Source: Pseudomonas sp.
Lineage (GTDB): Bacteria; Pseudomonadota; Gammaproteobacteria; Pseudomonadales; Pseudomonadaceae
Reading direction: 5' to 3'
Length of the DNA: 64,000 nt
NCBI RefSeq assembly: GCF_035554175.1
Contig: NZ_DATMIV010000018.1
Location: 84,076-148,075 of the forward strand
Position 1 is the stretch's first letter. Every line of letters begins with the position of its first letter. Both the position numbers and the translations under genes were made by a program. This document shows positions 8,857-63,122 of the stretch, piece by piece. The notes beneath the pieces were generated by a model, which was not told where the DNA came from, ran no database searches, and was given only the letters and a program-made list of their open reading frames with translations.

Positions 8857-8877
8857 TCAAAAAACGCTCAAACCTCC

Positions 8878-8902
8878 ACAGGCCACGGTTCTCGTGGCCT
8901 GT
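8878..8902 (+). terminator. 10-bp stem-loop downstream of rarD (no U-tract)
   Basis: ACAGGCCACG-gttct-CGTGGCCTGT. Confidence 0.4.
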
Positions 8903-8919
8903 ACCGTTCCTTCCCAAGG

Positions 8920-8928
8920 TTATCCACA
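8920..8928 (+). promoter_or_regulatory. perfect DnaA box TTATCCACA
   Basis: Exact 9-mer in the context GGTTATCCACAGC; non-coding rarD/gcvR gap. Confidence 0.7.
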
Positions 8929-9032
8929 GCGTGATCCCCGCCGTTTGTGCGCAAGTCACTGAAAGTTGGCGATTTTTTGAACAATTGCCGCAAAGCCACG
9001 GCCGATGTGGCGTGGCGCCCTGTCTCTACAGG

Positions 9033-9041
9033 TTATCCACA
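9033..9041 (+). promoter_or_regulatory. perfect DnaA box TTATCCACA
   Basis: Exact 9-mer in the context GGTTATCCACAGG, 113 bp after the previous box and in the same orientation. Confidence 0.7.
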
Positions 9042-9079
9042 GGCAGGTGCACGTTAAACCTGAATAACCTCTCGGGCGT

Positions 9080-9796: not shown

Positions 9797-10209
9797 CAGC
9801 GCACCGACCAGAAGCTGCGCCAAAGGCAGCCTGAGCAATATTTATGTGTACAACTTTTGATATTTAGCTGGAACAATCCAATGCTTTTTTGAGAACATCC
9901 CGTTCCGCGACGTGACCGCAATGCGTCATGAGGTCGCAGAACGACGTAATTAGTCTGATTTTCACAAGCGCAACTCATCATGTAGTATGCCGCAGCGCGC
10001 ACTACATAACGCTGGATCGATGTCTGCCCAAGGCCCTTCGCAATCCTGAAAGCCCCGTCAGCAAGGCCTCCAAGCCGTTGATTGGTGCCTGGCCCAGCCG
10101 CCAGCAATGGCATGTACTGGTCGGCAGGTTTGTGGTTTAAATGGCCAGAAGCTTCATTGTTAAATTGACGAGCTGAAAAGCGAAATAGCTGAGCAGAGTG
10201 AGGCAAGCA

Positions 10210-21537: not shown

Positions 21538-21544
21538 GAATCCC

Positions 21545-21635
21545 TTGTGGGAGCGAGCCTGCTCGCGAAAGCGCCCCGACATTCAACATCAGAGTCGACT
21601 GTCACGACGCCTTCGCGAGCAGGCTCGCTCCCACA
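21545..21635. repeat. REPIN, family A
   Basis: Inverted arms at 21545-21569 and 21612-21635. Confidence 0.9.
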
Positions 21636-21700
21636 TGGGTTCTGCGCAGGCCTTGAGCAGGCTATGCTGGCCGATCATTGTCCTGATCGAGACCTTGCCC

Positions 21701-40269: not shown

Positions 40270-40440
40270 CGCGTCTCTCCCAGCGGCATCTGTGCGCCAT
40301 TCGTCTCGGTAAGGCACCGGCAATCACGGCAGTGCCCTTTGATGCGATGGTATGACCGGCTTCGAGTGCTCAAATGCCTGCGGACGCCACGCAAAGGTGC
40401 GTTTACGACATGGCTGGAAATGACTGGAGAATGCATTCCC

Positions 40441-40523
40441 CCTGTAGGAGCTGCCGAAGGCTGCGATCTTTTGACTTTGACTTTGAAGATCAAAGGATCG
40501 CAGCCTTCGGCAGCTCCTACAGG
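40441..40523. repeat. REPIN, family B
   Basis: Inverted arms at 40441-40474 and 40488-40523. Confidence 0.9.
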
Positions 40524-45159: not shown

Positions 45160-45170
45160 TCAAGATCCAG

Positions 45171-45236
45171 GATCGCAGCCTGCGGCAGCTCCTACAGGTG
45201 GAACGCACTCCCTTGTAGGAGCGAGCCTGCTCGCGA
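45171..45236. repeat. chimeric REP pair: family-B-like left arm, family-A-like right arm
   Basis: GATCGCAGCCTGCGGCAGCTCCTACAGG ... TTGTAGGAGCGAGCCTGCTCGCGA. Only the GCTCCTACA/TGTAGGAGC cores are complementary. Confidence 0.7.
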
Positions 45237-45336
45237 TAGCAATCTCACATTCGACACAACCCGCCTGGTTGAACAATTTCTGATCAACCACCCCGGCCCC
45301 CATACCCACCAAGCCCCCCAGCCTTCCGCAAACAAG

Positions 45337-45345
45337 TTATCCACA
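45337..45345 (+). promoter_or_regulatory. perfect DnaA box TTATCCACA (array unit 1)
   Basis: Exact 9-mer. An opposite-orientation one-mismatch box, TGTGGATGA, is at 45373. Confidence 0.7.
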
Positions 45346-45518
45346 TACCCACCCACAGCTAATGGGGGTAACTGTGGATGAGTCTTGAAATATCTTGCTG
45401 ATTCACAAAGAAAAACCGTGACTTATTCGGAATCACGGTTTCAGAAAACGATTGCCTGTTTTTTGATCAGCCAGCTGCAAGCCACGGATTTAACGGTCTG
45501 TAGCGGGCAGCAAACACG

Positions 45519-45527
45519 TTATCCACA
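45519..45527 (+). promoter_or_regulatory. perfect DnaA box TTATCCACA (array unit 2)
   Basis: Exact 9-mer, 182 bp after unit 1. It is followed by two TGTGGAAAA boxes at 45566 and 45586. Confidence 0.7.
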
Positions 45528-45700
45528 GAAGCACCAACAGAGATCGGGGGTAACTCTGGCTTCGCTGTGGAAAAGCGGATCCGGCTGTGGAAAAACGCTC
45601 GCTAATGAGGTGCTCACCGTAGAAAAGCGTCACTTGATCAATAATTGAGCAAATCTCTGTAAACCCCGGTTCATATGTCCTGCAGCCGTTAGCGAACATC

Positions 45701-45709
45701 TTATCCACA
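45701..45709 (+). promoter_or_regulatory. perfect DnaA box TTATCCACA (array unit 3)
   Basis: Exact 9-mer, 182 bp after unit 2. Confidence 0.7.
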
Positions 45710-45850
45710 GAAGCGCCAACAGAGATTGGGGGCAAGTTTTCGCGTTACTCAAAGAAAAAAGCCCTGAAAATCCGTCACTTAAGCTGGCTGTTTTTTGATC
45801 GAAAGCTCGCAGGGCTTGATGGGCGAGGCCTGCAGGGAGGGGCGAACATG

Positions 45851-45859
45851 TTATCCACA
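45851..45859 (+). promoter_or_regulatory. perfect DnaA box TTATCCACA (array unit 4)
   Basis: Exact 9-mer, 150 bp after unit 3. Confidence 0.7.
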
Positions 45860-45910
45860 GCTTCGCCAACAGGGAATGTGCGTAAGCCGCGATATCGCGA
45901 TTGCACATCT

Positions 45911-46006
45911 CGTAGGAGCTGACGAGTGAAACGAGGCTGCGATCTTTTGATTTTTAGAATCAAGGTCAAAAGATCGCAGCCTCGTTTCACTCGTCAGCTC
46001 CTACAG
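45911..46006. repeat. REPIN, family B variant with a compensated internal substitution
   Basis: Arms at 45911-45951 and 45965-46006. GCCGAAGG is replaced by GACGAGTGAAACGAGG in one arm and by its complement in the other. Confidence 0.85.
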
Positions 46007-46021
46007 AGGGTTGGCGGGGTT

Positions 46022-46792
46022 TCAGCGGACTACGCCTTCTTCGATAAGGAGCTTAAGGATCGCTTCAGCACCCGCCTGCGCAGTCACGCCCTTGAGCACT
46101 TGCCCACCGCCGCCACTGGCCTTGGCCGTCGCTGCCTTCATCCGGTCGGCGCCGCTCTTGGCCTTGATCACCTTCAGGCGCTTGGGCCGAGGCTTGGCCG
46201 GCTGCAGTGTGGCGCTGGCCAGAAGCTGGTCTTGCACCACTTCAACGTCATCGGCGGCCAACTCGCCACGCCGCGCCGGGCCATAGGCACTCTGTCGAGG
46301 TTTCGGTGCGGCGTTATCCACAGTTGCCAGAAACGGCAGTTTCACCTTCAATCGCCGCCGCTGGCCACGGGGCAACGCTTGCAGCACCAGCGCCGAACCG
46401 TCATTGATCGACTCGACCTGCGCCAGGCCCACCACCAGTGGCCAGCCCAACCCCTCGGCCAGCAGAAAGGGCAACATCCCCGAGCCTTCGCCGGTTTCCG
46501 CCTGACTGCCGGTCAACACCACCTGCGCCCCGGCGTCGCGCAGATACGTGGTCAGCGCGGGCAAGGCATCGGCCCCCGCTGGTTGTTCCAGCACATGCAG
46601 CTGTTCCAGGCCCATGCCCAGATACGCGCGCAGTGCCGGTTCCGCAACGTCGCCGGCGTGCAGCACTTGCAGGTTTTCCCCAGCCAGTTGCAGACCCAGC
46701 TCCACCGCGCGCGCGTCTTGATCGGCGCGGCGCGGACGACCGGAGGTCGGGTGGGCGCCGATGGAGACGAGGCTGATCACGTTAGTGCTCAT
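46022..46792 (-). CDS. electron transfer flavoprotein beta-subunit-like protein of the dimethylglycine demethylase cluster
   Basis: 256 aa from MSTNVISLVSIGAHPTSGRPRRA (ATG 46792), with an ETF-beta-like fold. Follows the etfA-like gene as in the PAO1 dgc cluster. Confidence 0.85.
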   Translation of the reverse strand: MSTNVISLVSIGAHPTSGRPRRADQDARAVELGLQLAGENLQVLHAGDVAEPALRAYLGMGLEQLHVLEQPAGADALPALTTYLRDAGAQVVLTGSQAETGEGSGMLPFLLAEGLGWPLVVGLAQVESINDGSALVLQALPRGQRRRLKVKLPFLATVDNAAPKPRQSAYGPARRGELAADDVEVVQDQLLASATLQPAKPRPKRLKVIKAKSGADRMKAATAKASGGGGQVLKGVTAQAGAEAILKLLIEEGVVR

Positions 46793-46803
46793 AACTGTTT
46801 TCC

Positions 46804-48024
46804 TTATGCCGCGTCGCGTCGGCCGTCGTTGCGGTAAGCCTCTACCGCTTCGATCAGGGCCTGCAGAATCTCTGCGCTTTCGCCGATCACCGAGAGGTCG
46901 GCGCGTTTGATCATGTCGCAACCCGGATCGAGGTTGATCGCCACCACCTTGTCGCAGGCACCGATGCCTTGCAGGTGCTGAATCGCCCCGGAAATGCCCA
47001 CCGCGACATATACCCGCGCGGTGACCCAGGTGCCGGACGCGCCGACCTGGCGATCGCGAGCCATGAAGCCATCGTCGACCGCCACGCGGGAAGCGCCTTC
47101 GGTGGCGCCCAGTGCGGCGGCAGTCTGGTGGAACAGCGTCCAGTCCTTGACGCCATTGCCGCCGGAGAAAATAAACTCGGCTTCGGCCATCGGGATCGCC
47201 GCCGGGTCGACCGCCACCGCGCCGAGATCTTCGATTCGCGACAGGCTGCGTGCAACGCTTGTGGATAACTCCACCGGCAACGCTTCATGACGGGTTTCGC
47301 TGACCGGTTCGGCGCATTCGGCAGCGGCGAGAATCAAACGCGCCATCGGCCGCGCCAGATCTTGCAGCCCGGCGCCAGCGCGGCCGATGCACTCCTGATC
47401 CTTGACCTGCCACACCCGTGTTGCCGGGCGTTCGCCCAATGCAGCCGCAAAGCGCCGACCCAGTTCGCCGCCACCGCTGCGGCTGTCCGGCAGCAACCAG
47501 TGCCGCGGGTTGAACTGGTTATCCACAGCGCGCAGACCCTGCACCCGTTGTTCCGGTGCATAACCGCTGAATTCTTCGCCTTCGAGCACCAGCAAGCGAT
47601 CAACGCCCGCCGTCGCAAACGCATTTTCCTTATGCTCGCCGAACACCACGGCGAGCACCGCACCGTCCGTGCCGGCCAGCTGATGGGCGAGGCCGAGCAA
47701 GTCGCGATCGTGGCTGCTCAGGCGCCCACCGACCATGTCCGGCACCACGCTGATGTAGAACGCCGGCGTCGGCACCTGATGCAGCGGCAATTGCACTTCA
47801 ACCGCAGCCGAGCGCTTGACCGCCCCGCCCTGCTGCGCGCCGCTGCGGTCGATCCGCTTGAGGCCGTTGGGGCCGATAAAGCCCACACCGTGCGGGTTCT
47901 TGCGGATGACCCCGTTGGGGCCCATCCAGCTGTGTTGCGCCGGTTGCATCGCTGCATGCAGCGGATGCAGACGGTTACGCGCAATCCATTCGGCGCGCGG
48001 GTCGCGGCGGATAATGTCGCTCAT
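46804..48024 (-). CDS. electron transfer flavoprotein alpha-subunit-like protein (long N-terminal extension)
   Basis: C-terminal ETF-alpha FAD domain (IFSGGNG...VYVAVGISGAIQHLQG). ATG 48024 overlaps the dgcB stop (ATGA). Confidence 0.85.
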   Translation of the reverse strand: MSDIIRRDPRAEWIARNRLHPLHAAMQPAQHSWMGPNGVIRKNPHGVGFIGPNGLKRIDRSGAQQGGAVKRSAAVEVQLPLHQVPTPAFYISVVPDMVGGRLSSHDRDLLGLAHQLAGTDGAVLAVVFGEHKENAFATAGVDRLLVLEGEEFSGYAPEQRVQGLRAVDNQFNPRHWLLPDSRSGGGELGRRFAAALGERPATRVWQVKDQECIGRAGAGLQDLARPMARLILAAAECAEPVSETRHEALPVELSTSVARSLSRIEDLGAVAVDPAAIPMAEAEFIFSGGNGVKDWTLFHQTAAALGATEGASRVAVDDGFMARDRQVGASGTWVTARVYVAVGISGAIQHLQGIGACDKVVAINLDPGCDMIKRADLSVIGESAEILQALIEAVEAYRNDGRRDAA

Positions 48025-55288: not shown

Positions 55289-56233
55289 TCAGGCCTGCGC
55301 GGTACGCCGATCCTCGCGCGGGCAGCGGGCAAACCTGGCGCGATAGCTGCGCGTAAAATACGACGGTGACTCGAAGCCACAGGCAATGCTGACTTCGAGC
55401 ACGCTCATGTCGGTCTGGCGCAACAGCTGCCGAGCCTTTTCCAGCCTTAACCGCAGATAAAAATTGCTCGGCGTATCGTTCAGGTGCAGCCGGAACAAGC
55501 GCTCCAGCTGCCGCCGCGTCACCTTGATCGACTCCGCCAGCTGCAGCGTGGTCAGCGGCGGTTCGCTGTGCTGTTCCATCTCGCCGATCACCTGCACCAG
55601 TTTCTTGTTGCTGATGCCGTAGCGCGTGGCGACTTCCATGCGCTGGTGGTCTTTGCGCGGGCGGATGCGCCCGAGCACAAACTGCTCGCTGACCTGAATC
55701 GCCAGTTGCGGGCCGTGAGCCTGGGCGATCAGGTCGAGCATCAGATCAATCGACGCCGTGCCACCGGCCGAAGTGATCCGCCGCCGGTCAATCTCGAACA
55801 GCTCCTGGGTGACGCTGAGCTGTGGATAAGACTCCCTGAACGCATCAATCGCCTCCCAGTGCAGAGTCAGGCGATGGCCATCGAGCAGGCCTGCTTCGGC
55901 GAGGACGAAGCTGCCGGTGTCGATGGCGCCGAGGGTCACGCCGTCCTTGTCCAGCCTGCGCAACCAATGCTCCAGTGTCGGCGTGATGAATTTCAGCGGT
56001 TCGAACCCGGCCACCACCAACAACGTCGCGCCTTTCTTCAGCGGCTCCAGCGCCGCATCGGCGTTGACCGACATGCCATTGCTTGCCAGTACCGCGCCGC
56101 CATCGGCGCTGAGCACATGCCAGCGGTACAGCTCGCCGCGAAAGCGGTTGGCCACACGCAGCGGTTCGATGGCGGAGATAAAGCCGATGGCAGAAAACCC
56201 CGGCATCAGCAAAAAGTAGAAATCCTGGGACAT
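55289..56233 (-). CDS. cdhR: AraC-family regulator with GATase1/DJ-1-like sensor domain, CdhR-like (carnitine catabolism)
   Basis: Start set at MSQDFYFLLMPGFSAIGF. C-terminal AraC HTH. Divergent from caiX-cdhCAB, as described for P. aeruginosa. Confidence 0.7.
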   Translation of the reverse strand: MSQDFYFLLMPGFSAIGFISAIEPLRVANRFRGELYRWHVLSADGGAVLASNGMSVNADAALEPLKKGATLLVVAGFEPLKFITPTLEHWLRRLDKDGVTLGAIDTGSFVLAEAGLLDGHRLTLHWEAIDAFRESYPQLSVTQELFEIDRRRITSAGGTASIDLMLDLIAQAHGPQLAIQVSEQFVLGRIRPRKDHQRMEVATRYGISNKKLVQVIGEMEQHSEPPLTTLQLAESIKVTRRQLERLFRLHLNDTPSNFYLRLRLEKARQLLRQTDMSVLEVSIACGFESPSYFTRSYRARFARCPREDRRTAQA

Positions 56234-56424
56234 GGACGCACTCGGTTGGCGGACGCGTGGCTCGTTGATACGCCGATTGTCGGCGCCGTTCAAGCGTGCA
56301 GGTCGCTACAGTGCAAATGCCAGTCGCCGCAGTGCGTTTTCATGGGCGTATAGCTGCGTAACTTTGCATCACCGGCACGCCAGATGCCGGAACTCACAAT
56401 AAACGACCTGCCGAGGAACCCGAC

Positions 56425-58349: not shown

Positions 58350-58438
58350 CTGTAGGAGCTGCCGAAGGCTGCGATCTTTTGACTTTGATTTTCTAAAAGC
58401 AAGATCAAAAGATCGCAGCCTTCGGCAGCTCCTACAGG
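58350..58438. repeat. REPIN, family B
   Basis: Arms at 58350-58382 and 58403-58438, inside the cdhC/cdhA operon gap. Confidence 0.9.
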
Positions 58439-58465
58439 GTTCTTCGAACTCTTCAGGACATCGCC

Positions 58466-61664: not shown

Positions 61665-61928
61665 ATGATGTACGCCGATTTGATTGACCAGGAAGATCTG
61701 TTGGGCCAGCTCAAGGCCTTGGGTATCCAGGTGCCGAGCGGTACCAGCGCCGAACAGGCCTGTGAGTGTGCGGTGCGAGGACTGGATAACGTTCGCGCGT
61801 TCGAACTGCGCAAGATGGTCAAGGACATGTACACCAGCGGCGCCAGCATCCAGCCGGCGGTACGTCAGGCGATCGACAAGCAGTTGTTGCCGGCCCTTGC
61901 GGATTACCAGCAGTCCCACAGCGCCTGA
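61665..61928 (+). CDS. hypothetical 87-aa protein
   Basis: ATG after AAGGA. GC-rich third positions are typical of host genes. No recognisable family. Confidence 0.4.
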   Translation: MMYADLIDQEDLLGQLKALGIQVPSGTSAEQACECAVRGLDNVRAFELRKMVKDMYTSGASIQPAVRQAIDKQLLPALADYQQSHSA

Positions 61929-61933
61929 GAAAA

Positions 61934-62016
61934 GATCAAAAGATCGCGGCCTTCGGCAGCTCCTGCATTTGGAATACATGTCCCCTGTAGGAGCTGCCGA
62001 AGGCTGCGATCTTTTG
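61934..62016. repeat. REPIN, family B (left arm with two substitutions)
   Basis: Arms at 61934-61967 and 61984-62016. Confidence 0.85.
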
Positions 62017-62018
62017 CT

Positions 62019-63122
62019 TTACAGCCTTACGCTGGCAAACGTCGATTCATTGCGCGCCTGGCTCAGCGCCGACATCGGCCCCGACAGCGGCGACATCACG
62101 ATCGCCTGCGGCAGCGGCAGCATCGCCACTTGCTGGGTGGTGTTGGAGCCGACGCGCTCGTCACGCGGCGGGATGCCGAAGTATTCGCGGTAGCACTTGG
62201 AGAAGTGCGGCGTCGAGACGAAACCACACACCGACGCCACTTCGATGATCGACATCGGCGTCTGCTTGAGCAGTTGCCGCGCGCGGATCAGGCGCAGCTT
62301 GAGGTAGTAGCGCGACGGCGAGCAGTGCAGGTACTTCTGGAACAGCCGCTCCAGCTGTCGACGCGACACCGCGACATACACCGCCAGTTCATCGAGGTCG
62401 ATCGGCTCTTCGAGGTTGGCTTCCATCAGCGCGACGATTTCCTGCAGCTTCGGCTGGTTGGTGCCGAGCATGTGCTTGAGCGGCACGCGCTGGTGATCCT
62501 GCTCGTTGCGGATACGTTCGTAGACGAACATTTCCGAGATCGCGGCGGACAGTTCACGGCCGTGATCGCGGCTGATCAGGTGCAGCATCATGTCCAGCGG
62601 CGCGGTACCGCCGGAGCTGGTGAAGCGGTTGCGGTCGAGGGTGAACAGGCGTGTGCTCATGGCCACGCGCGGGAAAGCTTCCTGCATCGCCGCCAGACAT
62701 TCCCAGTGCACGCTGCAATCGAAGCCGTCGAGCAGACCGGCGCAGGCCAACGCCCAGCTGCCGGTGCACACCGCGCCCAGACGCTTGGACTGGCGCGCCT
62801 GACTCTGCAGCCAGGACACGTGTTCACGGGTCACGGTGCGTTGAATGCCGATGCCGCCGCAGACAATCACCGTGTCCAGTGGCGGCGCTTTGTGCATGGA
62901 AGCGTCAGGGGTGATCTGCAGACCGTCACTGGCCCAGACCTGGCCGCCATCGACAGTGAGGGTGCTCCAGCGATACAGCTCGCGACCGGACAATTGGTTG
63001 GCCATGCGCAGCGGCTCAACGGCGGACGCCAGGGAAATCAGCGTGAAATTGTCCAGCAGCAGAAAGCCGATGGATTGAGGCGCACGGTTCTGGGGTTGGG
63101 CCCCGGAGTTGAACGACGTCAT
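62019..63122 (-). CDS. gbdR: AraC-family glycine betaine/dimethylglycine-responsive activator GbdR
   Basis: 367 aa with a GATase1-like domain (IGFLLLDNFTLISLASAVEPLRMAN) and an AraC HTH. Adjacent to sdaB, as in PAO1. Confidence 0.8.
   Translation of the reverse strand: MTSFNSGAQPQNRAPQSIGFLLLDNFTLISLASAVEPLRMANQLSGRELYRWSTLTVDGGQVWASDGLQITPDASMHKAPPLDTVIVCGGIGIQRTVTREHVSWLQSQARQSKRLGAVCTGSWALACAGLLDGFDCSVHWECLAAMQEAFPRVAMSTRLFTLDRNRFTSSGGTAPLDMMLHLISRDHGRELSAAISEMFVYERIRNEQDHQRVPLKHMLGTNQPKLQEIVALMEANLEEPIDLDELAVYVAVSRRQLERLFQKYLHCSPSRYYLKLRLIRARQLLKQTPMSIIEVASVCGFVSTPHFSKCYREYFGIPPRDERVGSNTTQQVAMLPLPQAIVMSPLSGPMSALSQARNESTFASVRL

Follow-up and report, generated by a model that had tools for sequence, protein, structure and literature searches.

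Tandem DnaA-box triads between gbcA and etfB: a candidate non-origin locus for control of the replication initiator in Pseudomonas

Introduction

Why should two convergent metabolic genes of a Pseudomonas chromosome be separated by a row of perfect DnaA boxes? The question is raised by a 64,000-nt stretch of DNA from Pseudomonas sp. (NCBI RefSeq assembly GCF_035554175.1, contig NZ_DATMIV010000018.1, positions 84,076 to 148,075; hereafter the window), in which the gap between gbcA and an etfB-like gene holds four repeat units, each with the box TTATCCACA. The timing of replication initiation outside Escherichia coli and Bacillus subtilis is largely unknown, and the E. coli loci datA and DARS (DnaA-reactivating sequence) are regarded as specific to enteric bacteria. 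Pseudomonas, to our knowledge, has no control of the Dam/SeqA type.

We favor, with moderate confidence, the reading that the array is a DnaA-binding regulatory locus outside the origin, DARS-like or datA-like, that would control the initiator. That DnaA binds the array we regard as very likely, because its boxes are the perfect consensus also used at the Pseudomonas origin, oriC. Exchange of the DnaA nucleotide by a DARS-type mechanism, proposed by analogy, is a more speculative component that we hold only tentatively. The array's sequence features, geometry, conservation, and selection are themselves real. A preliminary description of this DNA had already compared the array, as a selected non-origin cluster, to datA and DARS, and synteny, conservation at synonymous sites, and the geometry of the DARS core all support that comparison.

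Perfect DnaA boxes in the window

Ten exact matches to TTATCCACA occur in the window (61% G+C), compared to 0.16 expected from dinucleotide-preserving shuffles, none of which held more than 1. For scale, the whole E. coli genome contains 32 perfect boxes (PMC11317965). Eight of the matches are on the plus strand (8920, 9033, 45337, 45519, 45701, 45851, 46314, and 47519) and two on the minus strand (47260 and 55821). Four plus-strand copies, spaced 182/182/150 bp, take up 523 bp inside the gbcA/etfB gap; three boxes inside the etfB-like and etfA-like genes bring the cluster at 45.3-47.6 kb to seven boxes in ~2.2 kb. Two further copies occupy a second intergenic locus, 36 kb away, which is a two-unit copy of the same module. 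The two gaps are as follows:

45160-46021, gap between the convergent genes gbcA and etfB, four box units
8857-9079, gap between rarD and a convergent ACT-domain gene adjoining glcB, two perfect boxes 113 bp apart

The copies in the gbcA/etfB gap align over 50 nt at 66-80% identity (repeat-finder family D2); the repeat finder also recovered shared TG(C/G)CTGTTTTTTGATC blocks, and TGCCTGTTTTTTGATC and TGGCTGTTTTTTGATC blocks are shared between units (family D5). Tandem Repeats Finder did not detect the array because its units are too diverged.

At this level, most of the preliminary description was borne out. Exact matching returned its four perfect boxes in one orientation at 182/182/150 bp, and the shuffles agree with its expectation of well under one copy per 64 kb. 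Where it had estimated at least ten perfect copies, seven of them between 45.3 and 47.6 kb, we counted exactly 10 and seven. The repeat finder recovered both blocks that it had placed in a degenerate ~180-bp repeat, and its opposite-strand one-mismatch boxes at 45373, 45566, and 45586 were all found. Two of its points needed revision. The ~40-nt module headed by a box survives as a conserved 50-nt block in every copy, but the unit is a 35-nt triad with a T-tract/GATC motif rather than a single box. Likewise, the array is real in the gbcA/etfB gap but not unique in the window, as units of the same family lie at 8920 and 9033.

A repeated triad of a perfect, a weak, and an inverted box

Alignment of the six intergenic units revealed a common plan, in which a T-tract/GATC motif (TTTTTTGATC or a degenerate form) is followed by a spacer with an imperfect dyad and then by TTATCCACAG and ~25 conserved bases. 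The spacer from T-tract to box is exactly 50 nt, or 51 in unit 1. The perfect box itself opens a triad of 35 nt: after 3 bp comes a weak box pointing the same way and, 5 bp further on, an inverted box matching at 6-7 of 9 positions. The triads, conserved in alignments of 25 species (gbcA/etfB gap) and 57 species (second locus), are listed below with their matches to the consensus:

45337-45370, plus strand, unit 1 triad: TTATCCACA, 3 bp, CCACCCACA (6/9), 5 bp, TGGGGGTAA (inverted, 7/9)
45519-45552, plus strand, unit 2 triad: TTATCCACA, 3 bp, GCACCAACA (5/9), 5 bp, CGGGGGTAA (inverted, 6/9)
45701-45734, plus strand, unit 3 triad: TTATCCACA, 3 bp, GCGCCAACA (4/9), 5 bp, TGGGGGCAA (inverted, 6/9)
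45851-45884, plus strand, unit 4 triad: TTATCCACA, 3 bp, TCGCCAACA (5/9), 5 bp, TGTGCGTAA (inverted, 7/9)
8920-8953, plus strand, second locus unit 1 triad: TTATCCACA, 3 bp, TGATCCCCG (6/9), 5 bp, TGTGCGCAA (6/9)
9033-9066, plus strand, second locus unit 2 triad: TTATCCACA, 3 bp, AGGTGCACG (4/9), 5 bp, CCTGAATAA (6/9)

To judge this geometry, we scored matches to the box in both orientations at each position between -36 and +60 relative to the intergenic boxes of the six units, and only +12 and +26 recurred. At +12, in the same orientation, matches were 6, 4, 6, 5, 4, and 5 of 9 (the 8.9-kb pair, then gap units 1-4), and at +26, inverted, they were 6, 6, 7, 6, 6, and 7 of 9, where the background for at least 6/9 is 0.7%. 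A triad scan of the whole window returned exactly the six intergenic units (0.36 expected), and the boxes inside coding sequence have neither triad partner. Across all fetched loci, 63% of 449 distinct box contexts contained the inverted partner at +26; the other offsets that stood out were +12 and -58, at 18% each. The inverted box was present in 114 of 115 Pseudomonas units, and the 5- and 3-bp spacers are exact in all six window units. By contrast, the middle 9-mer matches at 4-6 positions in the window but mostly at 4 across Pseudomonas, reaching 5/9 or better in just 17 of the 115 units. The spacer sequence is strongly conserved, as AAGCGCCAACAG in gbcA arrays and GGCAGGTGCACG in rarD arrays.

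The remaining parts of the units are these:

45459-45468, plus strand, TTTTTTGATC tract of unit 2, upstream of the box by exactly 50 nt
45791-45800, equivalent tract of unit 4
45278-45287 and 45641-45650, degenerate tracts of units 1 and 3, respectively
8973, TTTTTTGAAC, upstream of the unit 2 box of the second locus
45475-45510, imperfect dyad or hairpin, GCAAGCCACGG...CGGTCTGTAGC, between T-tract and box
45373-45381, minus strand, extra inverted one-mismatch box TGTGGATGA in unit 1, moderately conserved among the 25 species
45566-45594, minus strand, a pair of additional inverted one-mismatch boxes in unit 2, TGTGGAAAA, spaced 20 bp apart

The first of the two extra boxes in unit 2 (CTGTGGAAAAcc) is strongly conserved across species. 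Most units have the dyad in this position, with stems that differ in sequence.

The triad and the DARS core of E. coli

The closest parallel to the triad is the core of the E. coli DARS loci. In that core, box I faces the opposite way to box II across a 5-bp spacer, and box III has the orientation of box II (PMC6868365); DARS2 is also reported to include a double box with 3-bp spacing (PMC11317965). Read from E. coli K-12 (NC_000913), DARS1 is TTATCCACT-5-TGTGGATAA-3-TGTGTATTA, and the DARS2 region in the rppH-mutH gap contains TTATTCACC-5-TGTGGATAG-3-TGTGAAGAA and, 316 bp away in the same orientation, a second triad, TTATCCCAG-5-TGTGGATAA-3-GGTGTAAGA. We note that these two DARS2-region triads (L126, 3136-3170 and 3452-3486) are a small-scale parallel to the tandem units of Pseudomonas. 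Both systems are non-coding, lie outside the origin, and have a three-box core with one box opposed and spacers of 5 and 3 bp. On the minus strand, a Pseudomonas unit reads, for example, TTACCCCCG-5-TGTTGGTGC-3-TGTGGATAA, and the extended strong site GTTATCCACAG is common to both.

The likeness ends there. The flanks have no homology, the loci being gbcA/etfB and rarD/ACT gene rather than bioD-uvrB or mutH, so that geometry alone is shared. Pseudomonas has four plus two tandem units instead of a single core, with a T-tract/GATC motif and a dyad at fixed spacing and no exact match to the integration host factor (IHF) consensus.

In the reading proposed here, DnaA would bind the sites and the locus would regulate the initiator rather than serve as an origin. 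The most specific mechanism for this is of the DARS type, since triad and E. coli core share their geometry. The perfect box would recruit DnaA, a neighboring DnaA would load head-to-tail on the weak middle site, and that molecule would meet, head-to-head, the DnaA on the inverted box. Such an arrangement in E. coli leads to release of ADP and regeneration of ATP-DnaA. A close alternative under the same heading is a sink of the datA or box-cluster type, which would act by titration or by stimulated ATP hydrolysis.

Synteny and constraint across Pseudomonas

A rival explanation is that the array belongs to a repeat family of low copy number, selfish or neutral, or is left over from the origin of a plasmid or phage; it would merely carry the box, would have been fixed by tandem duplication, and would have no present function in replication control. 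There are reasons to consider this: the units are paralogous copies of one module, and some species have copies at a few other loci (between an ABC-F gene and yigZ in L050 and L105, and single units in L038 and L030). Moreover, a 101-bp family with an internal inverted repeat, R178, has been listed at 9-28 copies in each of three compared P. fluorescens genomes, with no function assigned to it (Silby et al. 2009). R178 might be the same sequence as our unit. A 183-bp "ATR" repeat (PMC3184786) was rejected as a P. fluorescens repeat, as it is the AT-rich repeat of Neisseria.

To follow the module through other genomes, we scanned one genome per species (GTDB) with the pattern TTTTTTGANC-N49-51-TTATCCACAG and obtained at least 119 stretches, at least ~100 of them in Pseudomonas. 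In BLASTN against the window, nearly all Pseudomonas matches listed mapped to two gaps, gbcA|etfB and rarD|ACT gene. The gbcA|etfB array was syntenic in at least ~40 of the Pseudomonas species found by the pattern. Every locus spanning this gap had 3-6 perfect boxes, mostly spaced 182/182/161 or 182/182/150, and every rarD|ACT locus had two, ~113 bp apart. The lineages covered were fluorescens, putida (P. putida, P. taiwanensis, and P. pudica), and syringae (P. cichorii, P. viridiflava, P. asturiensis, and P. capsici).

Conservation extends beyond position. Among 57 species, the rarD-gap box outside the search pattern was invariant at eight of nine columns and at least 90% conserved at the ninth, and the palindromic TTTGTGC(G/A)CAA block of this gap, TTTGTGCGCAA in the window, was strongly conserved. 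In the gbcA gap of 25 species, all four boxes and ~45 nt around each were conserved. Differences specific to individual units, such as ACTTT, AGATT, or GGATT after CAACAG, were kept between species, and therefore the units are old paralogues under constraint that are not being homogenized.

Three loci fetched independently, via the EtfA protein, also had the array in the gap, with four perfect boxes in P. orientalis, five in strain LS1212, and four in P. capsici, and all three had the coding-sequence boxes described below. This homologue search reached relatives of at least 89% identity, a range with P. aeruginosa outside it. The nearest EtfA homologues (96-97% identity) were from P. baetica, P. 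umsongensis, and related strains, which places the window in the P. fluorescens group.

Together, the synteny in three lineages and the retained differences between units make the repeat-family explanation improbable, and we give it little weight. It has no support from mobility either, as BLASTN in distant mode matched nothing in plasmids or phages, genes for replication or mobility are absent from the neighborhood, and no terminal inverted repeats or target duplications were noticed on reading the units, although no dedicated test for them was run. Nor could a repeat account for the independent boxes in rare codons inside the etf genes. The preliminary description had suggested a BLASTN survey of whether the gbcA/etfB position is conserved and had named many copies at unrelated loci with target-site duplications as evidence of a plain mobile repeat. 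What we found instead were two syntenic gaps with nearly all Pseudomonas matches, supplemented by all three EtfA-derived loci.

Some variation was observed around this core. An extra perfect box on the opposite strand occurs in the gbcB-gbcA stretch of several records (L007 1139, L021 4201, L035 4866, L060 709, L068 3701, and L118 2844), where the window has none, indicating that membership of the cluster varies between species. LS1212 and P. capsici have an added perfect box in unit 3 at the place of a degenerate TTACTCAAA in the window (45746-45754), so individual units have acquired or lost boxes. P. saxonica and a relative carry the module in a third context, flanked by an ABC-F ATPase gene and yigZ-TetR genes, which is not convergent. 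The array there has 2-3 perfect boxes (L050, 7100-7800; L105, 2450-3100), and in sequence its module stands midway between the two types of the window (TTATCCACAGTCCGGTGCACAGTGGTTGGGGGTAA). P. asuensis and P. ceruminis have single units at other places.

Units with the full triad were also recovered outside Pseudomonas, in Stutzerimonas, Thiopseudomonas, Cobetia (Halomonadaceae), and Limnohabitans/Comamonadaceae, with a middle box of 5-6/9 and an inverted box of 7-8/9. A second Stutzerimonas unit, outside the pattern requirement, reads TTATCCACA-gcg-CTCTCCACA-cgcct-GGTGGATAA, and a beta-proteobacterial example reads TTATCCACA-ggc-TTGGGCACG-ggggg-TGTGGATGG, with the T-tract and 50-nt spacer present in other gene contexts. 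These full units suggest a module that predates the genus or is spread more widely. Control matches of the pattern in Bacillota, Bacteroidota, archaea, Chloroflexota, and viral contigs had no triad, the viral scan yielding five A/T-rich chance matches. The non-Pseudomonas matches were ruled out as origins, as their flanks are ordinary metabolic genes and not dnaA or gidA.

Boxes inside etfB and etfA

The cluster continues into the neighboring coding sequences with three perfect boxes:

46314-46322, plus strand, in the etfB-like gene: sense ACT GTG GAT AAC; perfect in 23 of 33 species; top 6% of windows
47260-47268, minus strand, in the etfA-like gene: sense TTA TCC ACA, encoding Leu-Ser-Thr; perfect in 23 of 26 species; top 1.2%
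47519-47527, plus strand, in the etfA-like gene: sense GCT GTG GAT AAC; perfect in 24 of 25 species; top 0.55%

Ranks are among the 1995 9-mer windows over etfA and etfB, in species with 75-89% nucleotide identity in these genes. Third codon positions flanking the boxes vary between species. At 47260, the box is spelled by codons that twelve genes of the window seldom use, with TTA making up 0.5% of Leu, TCC 14.6% of Ser, and ACA 3.9% of Thr codons; the other two (46314 and 47519) use GCT or ACT with GAT. These boxes have only the 9-mer in common with the intergenic module and were not selected by the search pattern.

The retention of rare codons across the genus points to selection on the DNA word itself, and it argues against explanations by RNA folding or mobile elements, which need the intergenic context. 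If so, the etfA and etfB boxes would be a clean case of a protein-binding word overriding codon preference.

The gaps, their flanking genes, and possible transcriptional roles

The preliminary description had placed the array between gbcA and an etfB-like gene, and profile matches identify the flanks as gbcA (NF058607, 809 bits) and the electron transfer flavoprotein (ETF) beta subunit (NF051844). Beyond the latter are the ETF alpha subunit gene and dgcB-like and dgcA-like genes. As gbcA and etfB are convergent, the gap at 45160-46021 holds two 3' ends. Four related records have no gene called in it, and the open reading frames from a mechanical list inside it had no Pfam match. Rfam gave no match in the whole 64-kb window at the gathering score and, at an E-value threshold, only spurious microRNA-model matches in the gap, on a perfect hairpin of the repetitive extragenic palindromic (REP) type. 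These blanks agree with the earlier statement that the gap contains no credible reading frame or known small RNA. REP/REPIN-type elements bracket the array, and a terminator-like hairpin lies within it:

45183-45240, related single REP just 3' of gbcA
45912-46004, element with a perfect 39-nt inverted repeat and a 15-nt loop
45412-45442, minus strand, terminator-like hairpin inside unit 1, GAAACCGTGATTCCGAATAAGTCACGGTTTT followed by TCTTTG

This setting raises the possibility of a DnaA-dependent transcription roadblock or other local regulation, in which DnaA on the boxes between the convergent genes and inside etfAB would block or modulate RNA polymerase. Such a device would shield gbcA and the dgc-etf operon from each other, or tie the catabolism of glycine betaine to the cell cycle, instead of controlling the DnaA pool. 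E. coli DnaA-box complexes can terminate transcription in an orientation-dependent manner. Both main loci lie between convergent 3' ends, the intergenic boxes are all in one orientation, the terminator-like hairpin (45442-45412) is read from the minus strand within unit 1, and its core, AAACCGTGACTTA, ranks with the best-conserved blocks of the array outside the boxes in 25 species. DnaA is, moreover, a transcription factor in P. aeruginosa (PMC13438810). Yet four to six tandem units, with REP hairpins at both ends of the gap, exceed what a terminator needs, and the two loci flank unrelated genes while having a common module. The third context in P. saxonica and its relative is not convergent, the etfA boxes occur in both orientations, and a simple roadblock would have no use for the triad geometry. 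We therefore judge a roadblock unlikely.

It could also be proposed that each unit encodes a small RNA or structured transcript, with the box-like word forming part of a promoter or fold. Units 1 and 3 end in a T-tract, unit 1 contains a conserved hairpin (AAACCGTGAC...CACGGTTT), the dyads change their stem sequences, and within an RNA from the plus strand the perfect and inverted boxes could base-pair. The spacers between tract and box fold only weakly better than shuffles overall (mean z -0.83, with 27% of 70 spacers below -1.5), single-unit folds on both strands were not better than shuffles (z -0.9 and -1.2), and RNAalifold on the 57-species rarD-gap alignment gave -2 kcal/mol with no consensus structure. 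A promoter scan detected no sigma-70-like promoter in either gap, and Rfam, as described above, had no real match. Since the same 9-mer is conserved in coding sequence, where no such RNA is possible, we consider this explanation very improbable.

Chromosomal position and the possibility of an origin

Of 12 records that are complete or nearly so, nine have the loci at 0.32-0.60 Mb from their ends. Should these records begin at dnaA, as is true of most, the loci would be 5-10% of the chromosome away from oriC. The window has a GC skew of -0.022, with seven of its eight 8-kb bins negative and one at +0.022, and this slightly negative skew would place oriC to the right of the window. Among the annotated genes surrounding the array, dnaA, rpmH, and gidA are absent.

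A cryptic or auxiliary replication origin, built from an A/T-tract with GATC and DnaA boxes, would be consistent with the pairing of perfect boxes and a T6-GATC tract at fixed spacing. There is also a precedent in the genus for a second origin-like region, oriCII, a cluster of DnaA boxes located upstream of gidA that is conserved in Pseudomonadaceae and Halomonadaceae and binds DnaA without initiating replication (PMC13438810). However, the A/T tract is just ~10 nt long and 50 nt from the box, with a G+C-rich dyad between them, the window has no clear GC-skew switch, and the arrays sit between ordinary metabolic genes. In P. aeruginosa, initiation needs only oriCI (PMC13438810). An origin is thus, in our view, the least credible of the explanations considered, with a very slight chance of being correct. 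The arrays also differ from oriCII itself, which adjoins oriC and is the promoter region of gidAB-parAB, whereas the arrays lie between the 3' ends of metabolic genes, far from gidA, and contain a repeated triad.

Other DnaA-box clusters

Other non-origin clusters offer further comparisons. Like datA, the array is a ~1-kb cluster of high-affinity boxes a few hundred kilobases from oriC, a distance that in Pseudomonas would be about 0.3-0.6 Mb if the records start at dnaA, and it would likewise act on the DnaA pool. Stimulation of DnaA-ATP hydrolysis by datA depends on certain of its boxes and on an IHF site, and the array has no exact IHF consensus; tandem units and triad geometry are not features of datA, and there is no sequence homology. 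B. subtilis also has several origin-proximal DnaA-box clusters outside oriC, as the window has two clusters 36 kb apart. It belongs to another phylum with other sequences, and its clusters are not tandem repeats of a structured unit. We know of no B. subtilis cluster with boxes kept in coding sequence by synonymous constraint. The B. subtilis clusters are thought to restrain initiation by binding DnaA (Okumura et al. 2012, as cited in PMC13438810).

The preliminary description knew of no equivalent locus in Pseudomonas, and the literature that we searched likewise contained no description of one. A 2026 paper on P. aeruginosa DnaA treats oriCI, oriCII, datA, and the B. subtilis clusters and mentions no other Pseudomonas cluster (PMC13438810), and genome papers mention TTATCCACA solely at oriC.

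Weighing a proposed regulatory DnaA-binding locus

Several observations weigh against a regulatory locus of the DARS or datA kind. The perfect box of Pseudomonas occupies the outer position of box III and the middle box is weak, whereas in E. coli box II is consensus and essential (PMC6868365); the DARS analogy could therefore be partly coincidence. The conserved block (GCGAACA-NN-TTATCCACAGAAGCGCCAACAG...) is more constrained than its likeness to boxes alone accounts for, and the T-tract/GATC motif and dyad at fixed spacing have no counterpart that we identified in DARS or datA. The exact IHF consensus, WATCAANNNNTTR, is absent from both 45160-46021 and 8857-9079, its sole match in the window being at 10071. 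In E. coli, 13 of 32 consensus boxes are unbound in vivo (PMC11317965), and since isolated consensus boxes are often unbound there, the single boxes in coding sequence need not be occupied. Finally, most of the comparative loci were found by a pattern that requires one box. Only the remaining boxes, those inside coding sequence, and the three loci obtained through EtfA escape this bias.

Balancing these points, we consider regulation of the initiator by bound DnaA to be the probable function of the array, with the mode of action much less certain. The DARS core has been reported as conserved only in species near E. coli (PMC4245941). It is conceivable, though on balance we doubt it, that true sequences of the DARS type exist in Pseudomonas and, it appears, also in Stutzerimonas, Thiopseudomonas, Halomonadaceae, and some Comamonadaceae; in Pseudomonas they would have become tandem arrays on perfect boxes, reinforced by rare-codon boxes in neighboring genes. 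If true, the DARS mechanism would extend well beyond the relatives of E. coli, in a new arrangement that joins a strong outer box to a weak middle one and adds a fixed module of T-tract/GATC and dyad. A DARS-shaped cluster found genus-wide is in any case a concrete candidate for a replication-control locus, and it could explain how the nucleotide cycle of DnaA is closed. Furthermore, the module can serve as a search pattern for similar loci in other proteobacteria.

Additional features of the window

REPs similar to those bracketing the array occur at ~1824-1921, 21540-21650, 40435-40521, 58351-58445, and 61925-62020, and these cross-match in BLASTN of other loci. The tenth perfect box (55821-55829, minus strand) lies inside a gene for a GbdR-like regulator of the AraC family (55289-56293, minus strand). 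With a score of 340 bits, under the 480-bit GbdR cutoff, this regulator is probably a GbdR paralogue.

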